Part shown: in pieces, positions 20,947 through 54,299 of the stretch | How positions within the stretch are numbered: the first letter of the stretch is position 1 | Layout: the number at the start of each line of letters is the position of its first letter | Virus record (IMG/VR): IMGVR_UViG_3300017648_000001 | Span: 1 to 61,162 of that record | DNA length: 61,162 nt | Source: a virus | Lineage: Duplodnaviria > Caudoviricetes | Strand: one strand, 5' to 3' | Notes under the pieces: generated by a model | What the model was told of the DNA's origin: nothing | Databases searched by the model: none | The model's input: only the letters and a program-made list of their open reading frames with translations | Translations under genes and position numbers: made by a program

Positions 20947-21500
20947 TGACGGAAATTAAAATCGGTCTAACCGGCCGTCTTAGAAGCGGAAAGGATTCCG
21001 TCGCAGCCTACGCAAGCACCTTCTACGATTTCGCAACATATGCGTTCGGTGACGAATTGAAACGCGACTATCACGCGAAGAATCCGGATGTACCTCGTAC
21101 GCCGAAACCGAGAAAAGCGTATCAGGAACACGGACAGGCGGAGCGCTCCCGACGAGGCGACGACGTTTGGGTTGACGAGGTGTTCCGTACGATCGAATCA
21201 CACCGTTGGCCCGAGCGGATTATGATTACCGACGTAAGGCAGTCGAATGAGGTTGCGAGATTAAAGTCGGAGGGTTTCGTACTCATACGGATTACGGCTC
21301 CGGATCATGTCCGAATAGAAAGGGCGAAAGCTGCCGGAGATGCGTTTTCGGCGGAGGATTTGACGCATAGTACGGAGCTTGCCGTTGATGATTTCGAAGT
21401 AGATTTCGAGATTCATAACGATGGATCGCTCGTTGAGTTGTACGAAAAGTTTGATGCGGTGATGGCGGAATTGAATATTTCGAAGGAGGACGATATATGA
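20946..21500 (+). CDS. Deoxynucleoside monophosphate kinase
   Basis: GRLRSGKD P-loop; ITDVRQSNE and HSTE motifs. Confidence 0.85.
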   Translation: MTEIKIGLTGRLRSGKDSVAAYASTFYDFATYAFGDELKRDYHAKNPDVPRTPKPRKAYQEHGQAERSRRGDDVWVDEVFRTIESHRWPERIMITDVRQSNEVARLKSEGFVLIRITAPDHVRIERAKAAGDAFSAEDLTHSTELAVDDFEVDFEIHNDGSLVELYEKFDAVMAELNISKEDDI

Positions 21501-23356
21501 GCAACTTTAAATTCGTAGAATTATTCGCAGGCATCGGAGGGTTCCGTCAAGGACTCGACCAACTCGGAGGAGAATGCGTATTAGCTTCGGAGTGGGATAA
21601 ATTCGCTAAACAATCGTACACTATTCTTTACGGTGACGAACATCTTAACGATGACGTAACGAAAATTAACGAAAAAGACGTTCCTGACCACGACGTATTA
21701 GTATTCGGCATGCCTTGTCAAGCATTCTCGGTCGCAGGCAAGCGTTTAGGGTTCGAAGATATGCGCGGTACTTTATATTTCGAAGCTATGCGAATTGCTC
21801 GCGAAAAGAAACCGAAAGTATTGTGGATGGAAAACGTTAAGGGACTCGTAGGGCATGATTCCGGTAGGACGCTTAACGTAATGGCGCAAGCGATGTGCGA
21901 TATCGGCTACACGATAGATTTCGAAGTCCTAAATTCTAAATACTTCGGAGTTCCTCAGAATCGCGAGCGTATCTTCATGATTGGTATCCGTGACGATTTA
22001 ATCGAGCAGCAACCGTGGAAGATCGAAGGTACTAACGTAGTAGCGAAAGGTAAGCGTAGGATCTCCGAATTAGAGGGCGTTAAGACGTTTAACTTTGACT
22101 GGCCTGAACAAACGGAAGTAACGACGAGGTTGCGAGATATTTTAGAAACAAACGTAGACGAACGATATTACCTTAGCGAAGAGAAAACAGCGAAACTGGT
22201 GGCGCAGTTAGATCGCGAAAAGTACGATAAGGAAATTCCGGTGGTTATCGATCCTTCGCAACAGAAACGGGAGGGCAGAGCGAGAGTATACGTCGATGAA
22301 TCTCCGACAATTACGGCGAGGGATTACAAAGAACCGCGTATGATCGGCCACATCGATCTAAAAGGTCATGACGCAATCAAGCGCGTATATGATCCGTCCG
22401 CAATTTCGCCAACACTTACGACAATGGGCGGAGGACATCGTGAACCGAAGATAGCGGTACAAATGAATCGTAATGAAATCGGTAAGCAAACGGAAATCTC
22501 GCACTGCTTAATGGCGCGTGACTATAAAGGATTCGGCAATCAAGATATGACGGGGATAATCGAAGAAGTCCGACCAGTTTTAACGCCAGACCGTATCGAA
22601 AAGAGACAAAACGGACGTAGATTTAAAGAAGACGGAGAAGAATCGTTCACACTTACGGCACAGGATCGACATGGCGTGGCAGTCGGCACTAAGGAGGTTT
22701 TGTATGACGAGGAAAAGGAAAGAAACACCGTTGAAGTATTGCGAAAGCTGCGGGAAGAAGTTGGAGAGGAAGAGGTTGCCGAATGGAGATTTAGAGTACT
22801 TGATACACTTCAATCGTCGGAAGTATTGCAACAGAAACTGCATGTCGGAGTCATTCAAGGGCAGAGAATTGACGGACGATCCAAGTTGGTACACAGCCCA
22901 CAAACGAGCGAGATCAATAAAGAAAGCGGAAATGTGCGAGAAGTGTGGGTCGACAGAGAATGTGGATGTACACCACAAGGACGAGGACTGGAAGAACAAT
23001 TCGCTAGAGAATTTACAGTCATTATGCCGGAGTTGTCATATGAAAGAGCACAGACCGAAAAAGAGTTGCAAGATTTGTGGGAATCGACACAAGGGTCTGG
23101 GTTATTGCGAGAAGCATTATATAAGATTCAAGAAATATGGCGATCCGAATTACCTAAAACGAGGTACAGAATCAGAAAGTTAACGCCTAAAGAAACATTT
23201 AGACTCCAGGGCTTTCCCGATAGTGAGTTCGATAAGTTGGTCGAGGGTGGCATCTCGAATTCCCAACTTTATAAGCAAGCCGGTAACGCGGTAACGGTGA
23301 ATGTAATAAATGCGTTAGGCAGGCGTTTATTACCGTATTTAGGAGGCGATCAGTAA
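21497..23356 (+). CDS. C5-cytosine DNA methyltransferase with a large multi-TRD variable region
   Basis: LFAGIGG, PCQ, ENV, PQNRER, motif IX (RKLTPKETFRLQGF) and motif X (AGNAV). Confidence 0.95.
   Translation: MSNFKFVELFAGIGGFRQGLDQLGGECVLASEWDKFAKQSYTILYGDEHLNDDVTKINEKDVPDHDVLVFGMPCQAFSVAGKRLGFEDMRGTLYFEAMRIAREKKPKVLWMENVKGLVGHDSGRTLNVMAQAMCDIGYTIDFEVLNSKYFGVPQNRERIFMIGIRDDLIEQQPWKIEGTNVVAKGKRRISELEGVKTFNFDWPEQTEVTTRLRDILETNVDERYYLSEEKTAKLVAQLDREKYDKEIPVVIDPSQQKREGRARVYVDESPTITARDYKEPRMIGHIDLKGHDAIKRVYDPSAISPTLTTMGGGHREPKIAVQMNRNEIGKQTEISHCLMARDYKGFGNQDMTGIIEEVRPVLTPDRIEKRQNGRRFKEDGEESFTLTAQDRHGVAVGTKEVLYDEEKERNTVEVLRKLREEVGEEEVAEWRFRVLDTLQSSEVLQQKLHVGVIQGQRIDGRSKLVHSPQTSEINKESGNVREVWVDRECGCTPQGRGLEEQFAREFTVIMPELSYERAQTEKELQDLWESTQGSGLLREALYKIQEIWRSELPKTRYRIRKLTPKETFRLQGFPDSEFDKLVEGGISNSQLYKQAGNAVTVNVINALGRRLLPYLGGDQ
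22704..23183 (+). CDS. HNH/zinc-finger endonuclease nested in the +1 frame of the methyltransferase
   Basis: AAGGAGG (22691-22697) 6 nt before ATG; CEKC...DVHHKDEDWKNNSLENLQSLCRSCH HNH motif; additional CxxC motifs. Confidence 0.85.
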   Translation: MTRKRKETPLKYCESCGKKLERKRLPNGDLEYLIHFNRRKYCNRNCMSESFKGRELTDDPSWYTAHKRARSIKKAEMCEKCGSTENVDVHHKDEDWKNNSLENLQSLCRSCHMKEHRPKKSCKICGNRHKGLGYCEKHYIRFKKYGDPNYLKRGTESES

Positions 23357-23605
23357 ATGAATCATTACGAAGACGCCAACGAAAATACGCGTTGTAAAAT
23401 GTGTGGAACTAAAGTCGAGGGCGGTTATTGTAGTTGTGTAATCCAAGCGATAGAAGAATCTCCGAAACTACAAATTCGCGGCAAGGTAATAGTCAACGAA
23501 GATACGGGCGTTGTTGATGTAACGAATGAACGTACTGATTTATCGGAGGTATTAGTGGAGTATAAAGATAGAAACGTTATTGTAACAATAGATTTCGGCA
23601 TCTAA
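23357..23605 (+). CDS. Hypothetical protein with a zinc-ribbon motif
   Basis: RBS; CKMC...CSC. Confidence 0.6.
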   Translation: MNHYEDANENTRCKMCGTKVEGGYCSCVIQAIEESPKLQIRGKVIVNEDTGVVDVTNERTDLSEVLVEYKDRNVIVTIDFGI

Positions 23606-24123: not shown

Positions 24124-25344
24124 ATCGGAAAAGCAGACCGTAAACGATGGGAAGGTAATGTAAGATCGATGGAAATTATCGCGAAGGATAGCGACAAAAT
24201 AACGGCGGAGGACATCGAATTCCTTCGCCAAAACTATACGTCAGCAGGCGGTCTATTACCGAACGCATTTAGTGGCGGAGCGTTCTTTACGCCTACACAT
24301 GTTGCGAAATTTATTTGGGACGTATTAGCGCCAAAATTACCGGATAAGCCGAAGATACTCGAACCGTCGGTCGGGTCCGGAGTATTCCTCGAACATGCTC
24401 CGGAAGATGCGGAAGTAACGGCGCTAGAGCTCGACAAGACTTCGGCAAAGGTTACGTCGTTACTATACCCTAACGCTGAGATTATCGAAGGCGATGCGTT
24501 GGTTCATTCACGCCGAGACTACTACGATTTAGTGATCGGAAATCCTCCGTACGGCGTTTCGGTTAACTTCGAAAGTGATGACGAATGGTTATTAACGAAA
24601 AAGAAAGGCGCTTATAGCGGTAAGTCGGAAGTAGCGTTTATCGAACTAGCTATCAAAGCGGTAAAACCCGGTGGTTATATAGCGTTCGTATTACCGAAAG
24701 GTATCTCTTACGCTAATTACGCAGCTAAGTTGCGCCAATACATGTACGAAACATGCTGGCAAGTGGCAACGATATTCTTACCAGGCGAAACGTTCCAACA
24801 CGTAGGTACGACGATAGAAACGCAGATTATTATTCTTCGTAAAGTAACGCCAAACGCGAGATTAATAGACGTTGCCACGAAGAAGTGGGGATCGAATTTT
24901 AAGCGTTCAGATTACGGTGATATTACCGAATTTAACGCCAAGTTTTACGAGGGACAGACGCCAGCCTATTTCGCTAAGGTTACGGATATCGGTTGGGACG
25001 CGAAAGGCAAAATGACGGATAAGTGGGGCGATGGATTAACGCAGCTAGACGAGTTAGTAGACGATTTTACCGATTCACTAGTTCGCGAGAATCTATATCC
25101 GCATATACCGAGTTGGCACGGTTTAAAGGAAATAACGTCGTTCTTCTTTTCGAACGGCAACGATACTTGCGACGGACATCGCGAAGCTGCAGCGTGCTAT
25201 AAATACGGGCCTTACCGATGGAATGAATTAACGCTAGGCGCCGGTGAGGAGGTCGTTTGGAATGGCGAAGAACGATCGACGTTTGATTTCGATTGGCAAG
25301 ACGACATAGTGCGGAAATATTACGAAGAATTGGAGGCGAAATAA
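24124..25344 (+). CDS. N6-adenine DNA methyltransferase (probable non-AUG start near 24121-24124)
   Basis: FFTP, ILEPSVGSG and GNPPY motifs. Confidence 0.9.
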   Translation: MGKADRKRWEGNVRSMEIIAKDSDKITAEDIEFLRQNYTSAGGLLPNAFSGGAFFTPTHVAKFIWDVLAPKLPDKPKILEPSVGSGVFLEHAPEDAEVTALELDKTSAKVTSLLYPNAEIIEGDALVHSRRDYYDLVIGNPPYGVSVNFESDDEWLLTKKKGAYSGKSEVAFIELAIKAVKPGGYIAFVLPKGISYANYAAKLRQYMYETCWQVATIFLPGETFQHVGTTIETQIIILRKVTPNARLIDVATKKWGSNFKRSDYGDITEFNAKFYEGQTPAYFAKVTDIGWDAKGKMTDKWGDGLTQLDELVDDFTDSLVRENLYPHIPSWHGLKEITSFFFSNGNDTCDGHREAAACYKYGPYRWNELTLGAGEEVVWNGEERSTFDFDWQDDIVRKYYEELEAK

Positions 25345-52689: not shown

Positions 52690-54237
52690 TTAAATTCTCG
52701 GATACAGTTGTATGACAAACTGGTCGCGTTTGGTCCATTCTTTTCGTCTGAGATATGTCGCCTTATCTAATACAGCTTTCAACAATCGATTCTTACTTTC
52801 GATATCTGCGAGATCATATTCGCTAATAACCGTTTGCAATTGAGGCAGTAATTCATTAACGCTATTTTGGCGAATCTCTTCTTTTTGAATCTCACTTGAA
52901 ATATTTTTAATTTCATCTTTTAATCCGTTGATGCGGTTTGTTAAATTCTGCTGGCGTTCTAAAAACGTATCTACATCGTAAACTCCTCGTTCAAGCAAAT
53001 CATGTAAATTGCTTTTCTGTTCTTCTAATTTTTCTACCTCTTCTTCCTTATTTTCAATTACCTTTTTCTTATATTGCGAATCGTCCCCGTTATTTAATAC
53101 TGGAGCTTCCGTCATAATTTCGAGTTCTGCAGCAAACTGCTTTAGTCCGTCGATAACACGCTGTTCAACTAAATTCAAAGCTGACCCTTTTTGCACGCCT
53201 TTACATCCTGGATTGTTACAGCGAATGACGTCGTTAGGACGATCTGGTCGAGGTTGATAAAGCATAGAATAACCGCATACTTCACACTTCAAGACACCGG
53301 CTAGCGGATTCGATAACGTTTTATCAGTGACGGTAGAATGGCGCCATCGCCCGGAGTGCGCTCGATTTGCGGCATCGAATAGTTCGCGTGACACAATCGG
53401 ATCGTGTGCGCCTTCTTTTATCGTCCATTTGTCGCGTGGCATTTTCTTTTTGGTATACTTCCCGTCTCTTTTCGAATAACGGACTTGTCCCCAAATGATG
53501 TTACCGATATAAACTTCGTTTTTAATAATTGACGTAATACTGCTCGGTGCCCAATTTTTACGTTTATTATTAGGAGGTTTTACGCCTAGACGGTCGAGTT
53601 CATTTGCGACGGCTTGTCTTCCGTGTCCGTCTCGCATCATTTCGAACATTTTCTTTACGACCCACGCGGTTTCTGGATCGGGGTATAGCCGTAAGTTTTC
53701 ATCACGTAAATATCCGTATGGCGGTTTTTTACTTATCGACTTACCTTCGCCTGCAGATGCGGCCCGACCTCGTTGCATACGGCGAGTTATTGCCTTTAAT
53801 TCTTCGCGTGCAACTAACGACTTAATTCCGAAGACCAACTCCCACGTTTCTGATTCCGGATCATATACTTCGGTAGGAGTTAGTATTTTTGCGCCTGAGT
53901 ACCGGAAAGCGCGATCGAGGAGTCCTTGATCGAGCATATCGCCACGTCCGAGACGATCGAGGTCCATTACAAGCACACCGTCTACGTTATTAACTTCTAT
54001 ATCTCGGAGCATCGCTTGTATTTCCGGACGTTCCGATATAGACTCTCCGGACACAACCTCTTCGTATATGTTTGCGATATTATGATTCTCTTTTTTAGCT
54101 ACCGCGAAAAGTGTGCGACGATGGCGATCGAGTGTGTCGTAAGTTTCTCCGTTTTCGCTCGCTTTCTTTTCTTCTTCAAGGTCTTTTCGACTTTTACGTA
54201 AATATATATTAATAGTAAGACCGTTAGGACGGCTCAT
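52690..54237 (-). CDS. Large serine recombinase (integrase)
   Basis: YLRKS catalytic Ser, DRLGR, PPYGY, zinc ribbon CEVC...CKG, coiled coil. Confidence 0.96.
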   Translation of the reverse strand: MSRPNGLTINIYLRKSRKDLEEEKKASENGETYDTLDRHRRTLFAVAKKENHNIANIYEEVVSGESISERPEIQAMLRDIEVNNVDGVLVMDLDRLGRGDMLDQGLLDRAFRYSGAKILTPTEVYDPESETWELVFGIKSLVAREELKAITRRMQRGRAASAGEGKSISKKPPYGYLRDENLRLYPDPETAWVVKKMFEMMRDGHGRQAVANELDRLGVKPPNNKRKNWAPSSITSIIKNEVYIGNIIWGQVRYSKRDGKYTKKKMPRDKWTIKEGAHDPIVSRELFDAANRAHSGRWRHSTVTDKTLSNPLAGVLKCEVCGYSMLYQPRPDRPNDVIRCNNPGCKGVQKGSALNLVEQRVIDGLKQFAAELEIMTEAPVLNNGDDSQYKKKVIENKEEEVEKLEEQKSNLHDLLERGVYDVDTFLERQQNLTNRINGLKDEIKNISSEIQKEEIRQNSVNELLPQLQTVISEYDLADIESKNRLLKAVLDKATYLRRKEWTKRDQFVIQLYPRI

Positions 54238-54299
54238 GTACAATCACCTCTACACGAATTATAACCGACTATACACAAAAATGTAAATTCGTTATTCTT

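Follow-up and report, generated by a model that had tools for sequence, protein, structure and literature searches.

An HNH endonuclease gene nested out of frame within an open phage C5 methyltransferase gene: a likely homing element with a predicted target in motif IX

The window analysed here is an entire virus record of 61,162 bases. Pfam matches among 30 scanned proteins include an AimR regulator, a serine recombinase, DNA polymerase A, ribonucleotide reductase, and portal, capsid and tail proteins, and given these matches we infer a temperate phage of Bacillus-like hosts. The AimR (arbitrium) regulator (951-2192) and the large serine recombinase (52690-54243) are temperate-phage markers. 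The gene of interest (21497-23356, + strand) encodes a C5-cytosine DNA methyltransferase of 619 aa (PF00145, 300.7 bits against a cut-off of 22), whose closest named relatives are the enzymes of the Bacillus phages rho11s, H2, SPR and SPbeta; these we take to be multispecific, with a modular, insertion-tolerant variable region. Its sequence contains the catalytic-core motifs FAGIGG (21524-21541), MPCQAFS (21710-21730), ENVKG (21830-21844) and QNRERI (21956-21973), all on the + strand, and we assume the labels I, IV, VI, VIII, IX and X for the motifs of this enzyme. The catalytic core in an AlphaFold2 model matches the fold of M.HhaI. Motif IX, RKLTPKETFRLQG (23174-23212, +), constitutes the predicted target region discussed below; motif X, QLYKQAGNAV (23264-23293, +), is intact and reachable only by reading through an insert in the methyltransferase frame. 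The second gene downstream (24169-25344) encodes an N6-adenine-type methyltransferase (PF02384), and across the whole window the most under-represented palindromic 4-mers are GGCC (0.42 of expected), CGCG (0.59) and GATC (0.65).

Nested within the C5 methyltransferase gene is an HNH endonuclease gene (22704-23183, +) of 159 aa from its ATG (PF01844, 26.4 bits; cut-off 21.4), the start of which is offset by 1207 nt from that of the methyltransferase ORF and which is hence in the +1 frame. Its product displays the HNH core residues D88, H90, H91, N99, N103 and H112 with Cys/His zinc-binding motifs on either side, matches many PHROG HNH families, and is modeled by AlphaFold2 (121 sequences) with a mean pLDDT of 91; no solved structural relatives were recovered at E 0.001 by fold or by profile. 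Five nucleotides before the ATG is the Shine-Dalgarno sequence TAAGGAGGT (22690-22698, +), which marks the 5' edge of the insert and has an anti-Shine-Dalgarno duplex energy of -11.8 kcal/mol. The preliminary description of this locus, which had proposed a 159-aa HNH/zinc-finger ORF in the +1 frame with a strong ribosome-binding site, is thus borne out. Other candidate signals were discarded: an antisense ORF (22580-22999) has no Pfam match, and stops interrupt the antisense frames of almost every relative; ORFs that begin at a third-frame ATG (HNH codons 27-28) span 3-134 codons and share no typical length; and a weak + strand match to a sigma-70-like promoter (22533-22560) is no evidence, because such matches number 5 against 4.1 expected.

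Below, the methyltransferase frame is termed the host frame, insert-free methyltransferases are termed empty alleles, and those with the nested HNH are invaded alleles or carriers. Empty alleles read HGVA(I/V)G-xxP-(K/R)YRIRKLTP, and the window has 158 residues where three stand, so that by protein alignment the inserted segment (about 22688-23161, +) comprises 158 host-frame codons at the distal end of the variable (target-recognition) region. This comparison with insertion-free homologs agrees with the earlier placement of the insertion in the variable region, and the span then given (22691-23183) holds for the end of the HNH ORF but not for the insert, which the ORF overruns by 22 nt, crossing the conserved methyltransferase codons R-Y-R-I-R-K-L. 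At the DNA level, similarity to empty alleles is lost at 22686-22690, exactly at the Shine-Dalgarno sequence, and similarity to the empty allele L205 returns only from 23204. The stop codon of the HNH gene, TAA (23181-23183, +), is made of the methyltransferase Leu-Thr codons TTA ACG in motif IX. This Leu-x junction ends the HNH ORF in 49 of 79 copies (hand count), and in 38 of 76 empty alleles (from the best 80 of 589 matches) it already provides a stop in the +1 frame; the element is therefore able to use a pre-existing stop.

The host frame contains no stop across the HNH gene and continues into motifs IX and X, as the preliminary description had stated. A stop arises wherever an HNH codon ending in T directly precedes AA, AG or GA, and T is found at none of the 40 HNH third positions where this would happen, as against 29 of 56 elsewhere. 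Permutation of synonymous codons within the gene gave a mean of 9.1 host-frame stops with none of 20,000 shuffles stop-free, and resampling from the codon usage of the phage (20,000 times) gave a mean of 14.3 and a minimum of 4, again with none open. Thus, the openness of the host frame is not due to chance, and there is selection against stops. Among the matches listed, 83 clusters form a core (at least 45% identity over at least 135 aa); in these, which were retrieved by HNH-frame patterns only, the host frame is stop-free in 79, has one stop in one and 7-18 stops in three. These last three are non-nested copies, with T at 42 of 108 risk positions.

In an alternative explanation, the insert would be removed or skipped at the RNA, translation or protein level, through an unrecognised intron, bypass or intein-like mechanism. 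Exact skipping has a precedent in T4 gene 60, and stop-containing extra pieces in motif IX of some relatives (see below) hint at recoding nearby; however, a spliced or bypassed RNA would leave no need for the strict selection against host-frame stops. Furthermore, an Rfam scan of 21400-23500 returned two chance matches only, RNAalifold on 78 copies in ten windows found no consensus structure stronger than -1.3 kcal/mol, and the insert varies in length and at its ends and has an HNH ORF overlapping conserved methyltransferase codons, all of which led us to reject a group I or group II intron. An intein was likewise rejected, as the Hint splicing domain and the intein termini (Cys/Ser at the start, His-Asn before Cys/Ser/Thr at the end) are absent: the insert starts with Thr and ends with Thr preceding Arg. 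Skipping of any kind hence appears exceedingly improbable, and the earlier statement that neither intron nor intein is present withstands the Rfam, RNAalifold, Pfam-domain and terminus checks.

Several features indicate that the HNH ORF is a genuine gene throughout the family. Of 69 copies aligned at the first codon, 68 start with ATG and one with GTG, and 19 checked catalytic and zinc-binding (metal-binding) residues are retained in 76-78 of 78 copies, among loci that were found by HNH patterns, a procedure favouring intact copies. A duplex of -6.5 kcal/mol or stronger precedes 36 of 78 HNH copies, compared with 75 of 955 ATGs taken as controls from these methyltransferase genes (p ~1e-13). 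Between the window and L117, substitutions at HNH codon positions 1, 2 and 3 number 24, 16 and 56, which is the distribution indicative of selection on the HNH protein. One copy (L003:2962-3366), nested in a 603-codon methyltransferase ORF, is devoid of the N-terminal zinc finger and might be a decay intermediate; apart from it, no decayed HNH within an intact methyltransferase was recovered in searches that favoured intact copies. A search for decayed copies via the host frame recovered only 3 loci, all with the HNH intact, a sample too small for a conclusion.

HNH-frame searches yielded 175 proteins and loci from three collections, with the viral and metagenome scans each represented by their best 80. 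At least 125 sequences, including the window, match over at least 100 aa, and they fall into at least 109 clusters at 90% DNA identity. In species genomes, all 19 core loci are nested and carry labels from ten phyla, although many of these genomes are metagenome bins whose host labels may be wrong. Most invaded genes match C5 methyltransferase profiles, with L022 and L043 lacking any Pfam match. A pattern-based sort of 96 nested clusters places 68 before motif IX, two between motifs IX and X, and 16 before motif X with IX unmatched (three of which are mis-sorted IX cases), leaving ten unsorted. A host-frame profile recovered 127 additional proteins among 8,000 scored candidates, nearly all of them PF00145. 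The nested gene is uncalled in annotated records (e.g. CUB-EPI_14), making the family invisible to annotation. No plasmid match was found.

The same HNH family also occurs in other placements: 1) in frame, as a shortened HNH fused within a C5 methyltransferase at the same place (L042:1897-3522), with an out-of-frame nested sister, L193, on the HNH tree; 2) directly after an intact methyltransferase gene (L167:1008-1583), with an HNH whose C-terminus ends in a duplicate of the methyltransferase's motif X, as though insertion had taken place there and the end of the gene had been rebuilt; 3) in the +1 frame inside the intein of a terminase-like gene with its host frame open, as a distant relative (26%; L063:1040-3592); 4) between motifs IX and X, or ahead of motif X in C5 methyltransferases of another class (L002, L195; L004, L020-L025, L040-L047, L055); and 5) without a nearby methylase (L119, L139). 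The host frame is open at all of the alternative insertion points except in the in-frame fusion L042. The in-frame, downstream and intein-nested placements show that it is the nuclease gene itself that moves. Together, the nested, in-frame, downstream and intein-borne forms of a single nuclease could furnish a natural series for the origin of overlapping genes.

The element is rare. Only one of ten genomes with a related allele (out of 246 genomes) has the HNH, and that one is the seed genome; it occurs in one of 401 genomes of the order and in one of 80 viral alleles (best 80 of 589 matches). In a tree of the insert-free methyltransferase segments (17 invaded and 16 empty alleles, leaving out L204 and the too-short L233), the state changes eight times, with at least four changes forced by well-supported branches, and a single invaded clade is rejected (AU p = 0.00013). 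A tree of the N-terminal region (29 invaded, 50 empty), which is a quick tree with long-branch warnings, has 13 changes, at least five of them forced. Invaded and empty alleles therefore interleave, and the invaded alleles are not one clade. In both trees the invaded alleles are nevertheless more clustered than shuffled labels, and HNH identity tracks methyltransferase identity over 29 loci (Spearman 0.73), implying that much inheritance is vertical or that homing is local; over 10 Bacillus-type alleles the correlation is 0.15 (p 0.33). No near-identical element in divergent hosts was found among the 29 loci. Given that the labels are clustered and the genes recombine internally, patchiness could also stem from module shuffling or repeated loss. 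One empty allele, L243, has a carrier-like motif IX (ECEALQ) and lies near the invaded L136 and L183; it possibly lost the element after invasion.

This distribution also bears on the proposal that the nuclease and the methyltransferase form a functional pair, restriction-modification-like or directed against competitors, in which the HNH would attack unmethylated or foreign DNA and, through nesting, stay linked to the protecting methylase. Consistent with such a pair, the HNH family is almost always found within C5 methyltransferase genes, its catalytic residues are nearly invariant, and PF01844 includes restriction-type HNH proteins as well. However, nine of ten genomes' related alleles and 79 of 80 viral alleles (best 80 of 589) have no HNH, copies without a nearby methylase exist, similar HNHs (81% identical in the window and L117) reside in methyltransferases with differing variable regions, and the pair does not predict the change in the methyltransferase's own motif IX described below. 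Judged from variable-region sequence and distribution, the nuclease is not always matched to a specificity region as in a restriction-modification pair. We accordingly consider a co-encoded pair, the alternative raised in the preliminary description, to be improbable and a poorer fit, most close methyltransferase alleles being without an HNH.

In the host frame the insert encodes an acidic peptide (net -8). In an AlphaFold2 model built from 11 sequences, the catalytic core and motifs IX-X are well modeled and the variable region poorly, and the insert forms helices (pLDDT 50-76) flanking a disordered middle; no structural match to this peptide exceeded a TM of 0.33. A null that fixes the HNH residues and bans stops, evaluated on 1,402 of 3,003 pairs, accounts for most of the host-frame identity, leaving an excess of 0.01-0.06 that is greatest at HNH codons 16-32 and 117-150 and that shared ancestry could produce. 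This excess, the AlphaFold2 helices in those same regions, the under-use of proline in the peptide (55 of 412 against 160 of 558) and the correlated divergence of HNH and methyltransferase would fit a formerly mobile module of the variable region that is now domesticated or passively shuffled, with a structural peptide and with patchiness generated by ordinary recombination. Yet in the 29 loci whose catalytic region is complete, identity at four-fold sites of the HNH is 0.35-0.39 (expected 0.26-0.28), no higher than at those of the non-overlapping catalytic region (0.43-0.45; expected 0.26), the peptide matches no fold, and the HNH family has in-frame, downstream and intein-nested placements. 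Domestication hence appears very improbable. The insert peptide is apparently little more than a spacer, for which an open frame is required and the sequence is largely free, and this is the pattern expected of a translated, tolerated and unspliced insert.

Examination of motif IX reveals a difference between the two types of alleles. Downstream of the insertion site, empty alleles read R-R/K-L-T-P-x-E-C-x-R-L-Q-G, and the window has a Thr codon, ACA (23195-23197), where 17 of 17 related empty alleles have Cys. The stretch E-C-x-R-L-Q is intact in 87 of 92 empty alleles (partly from the best 80 of 589) compared with 6 of 78 invaded ones, a count that leaves out 26 of the 96 nested clusters, in which no ungapped motif follows the insert, and adds 8 invaded proteins without DNA. 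The contrast is found both in a broad set (70 of 75 empty alleles, best 80 of 589, against 3 of 61 invaded) and in a Bacillota-type set (17 of 17 against 3 of 17). Carriers have altered the motif by several routes, with C changed to A, T or V, R to F, A or others, and Q to M. Among 92 further invaded proteins (120 host-frame matches, minus 25 duplicates of known loci and 3 without the motif), none keeps E, C, R and Q all together, although 66 of them read ECEFLQ and are mostly one clade and non-independent. The search for empty alleles was not biased towards the empty state, since it was seeded by the C-termini of invaded alleles and accepted Ala and Phe. At motif X too, however, the empty set (best 80 of 589) is more uniform, with differences of 0-0.26 as against 0.38 for the Cys and 0.58 for the Arg. 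The simplest reading is that the nuclease recognizes the conserved motif IX stretch and that carriers are immune, in the manner of intronless homing in T4 (PMC2988022). The difference could instead reflect hitch-hiking of an old flank rather than immunity, which would itself point to co-conversion. The motif IX signature, which is new here, predicts both a nick site and self-immunity and offers an exact substrate pair for a nicking or homing assay, rendering the homing of hidden nucleases directly testable.

In light of the above observations, we propose that the nested gene probably encodes a homing endonuclease, which is predicted to act by nicking motif IX of empty alleles and to copy itself by recombination, with no splicing involved. 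A single mRNA would give rise to two proteins, the HNH and a methyltransferase that carries 155 extra residues as a mostly passive, acidic and partly helical passenger between the recognition region and motif IX, and that presumably functions despite it. During mixed infection, or against a resident prophage, the HNH would nick E-C-x-R-L-Q alleles close to the Glu-Cys codons, some 35 nt away from the insert; superinfection of prophages would supply such targets. Repair from the carrier would then copy the insert together with the altered motif IX, and by virtue of this carriers would be immune. Dual coding without splicing, as originally suggested, draws support from the selection against stops, the conserved start and active site of the HNH, the patchy distribution, the lack of conserved RNA structure and the variable ends.

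In some relatives motif IX contains short extra pieces before the Glu-Cys codons (L038, L143, L166, L176, L184-L186, L190, L191, L322-L332). Viral stretches that keep motif IX and have 6 extra bases before it encode an HNH within 1.5 kb in 8 of 11 cases, compared with 1 of 80 ordinary viral alleles (best 80 of 589). The extras lie immediately ahead of the Glu-Cys codons, and most are built as two identical or similar codons with three bases between them. In 7 of the 11 viral stretches these three bases spell a stop codon (TAG, TGA or TAA). Among the loci listed, stop-bearing forms include CTT TAG CTT, GTT TAG GTT and CTC TAA CTT, and others have a sense codon between CGA/CGG; extras of 5 and 7 bases shift the frame. 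Two such loci, L322 and L326, both read CTT TAG CTT, with HNH genes 80% identical in DNA and both flanks open. The window has no such extra piece in motif IX. This matched-codon form is that of the synthetic stop-hop, of which no natural case was known as of 2016 (PMC5009743). Matched codons that flank a stop at the predicted site are candidates for a natural stop-hop. Alternatively, the extras may be assembly artefacts, or scars left by repair or at the nick site, by which the gene is split or inactivated. That some carriers have a stop or frameshift in motif IX fits poorly with a simple need for full-length methyltransferase. It is conceivable, if rather unlikely, that dual coding constitutes a third widespread form of lodging for homing nucleases beside introns and inteins, with motif IX targeted across phyla, escape by point changes or a short insertion, and stop-hopping completing the stop-bearing methyltransferases.

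Parts of this strategy have precedents. T4 seg/mob free-standing endonucleases, which include the HNH nickases MobA and MobE, home without introns, cut away from their insertion sites and co-convert the flanks (PMC2988022). They resemble the present element in being homing nuclease genes without intron or intein, with the cleavage site (here predicted) apart from the insertion site; they differ in sitting between genes or splitting them, whereas the HNH here is contained entirely in a gene that remains a single ORF, with a predicted target that, unlike theirs, is only ~35 nt from the insert. Inteins, too, can have homing endonucleases encoded out of frame or antisense while the host frame is open (bioRxiv 10.1101/2025.01.02.630785); these share the placement of the endonuclease in another frame but splice the passenger peptide out, whereas no splicing domain is present here. 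M.EcoHK31I is a C5 methyltransferase whose gene likewise encodes a second protein wholly in another frame (PMC2836561); there the nested ORF is a beta subunit that supplies motif IX, whereas here it is a nuclease and motif IX lies in the main frame.

The closest parallel is the ShiLan domain, for which the same dual-coding strategy was described, without experiments, in mycobacteriophage methylases (Arsenault, Gosselin, Gogarten 2025; PMC11855218); that case comprises about ten mycobacteriophage sequences with the target unnamed, and near-identical elements occur in divergent hosts (PMC11855218). Hidden out-of-frame HNHs are found in ShiLan, Pacc40 gp60 and Applejack gp54/gp55 (PMC11855218, PMC9957025, PMC12613952). 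The present family is like the ShiLan type in hiding a zinc-finger HNH in an alternative sense frame while the methylase frame remains open. However, the hosts differ: ShiLan gp65 (PF01555) and Pacc40 (annotated N-4) are N4/N6-type methylases, as is Applejack gp54, which has a DPPY motif and no match to C5 profiles, and the host here is a C5 enzyme. ShiLan and Pacc40 use the +2 frame, as against +1 here, and ShiLan starts with GTG without a ribosome site, as against ATG with a strong Shine-Dalgarno sequence. HNH similarity is 28% over 122 aa to ShiLan and 34% over 82 aa to Applejack gp55, with none to Pacc40. Given the N4/N6 hosts and HNHs at best 28-34% alike over partial length, this is not a ShiLan element but one that works in a ShiLan-like way; the ShiLan domain proper, at the same site in an N4/N6 methylase, in the +2 frame, with GTG and no ribosome site, is not what is found here.

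Our literature search, which covered mainly open-access papers and the main text of PMC11855218, revealed no description of a comparable element in C5 methyltransferases and none of its target. The strategy itself is already published, and what is described here is a separate, wider family in C5 enzymes with a testable target; compared with the ShiLan type, it is far wider and has a host-borrowed stop, a candidate target and an immunity signature. This suggests that dual coding without splicing has had an independent origin in a further class of methylases, where it is widespread yet invisible to annotation. Applejack gp55 (L220:4237-4863), which lies in the +1 frame of its N4/N6-type host with AGAGGA before the ATG, represents a further independent element.
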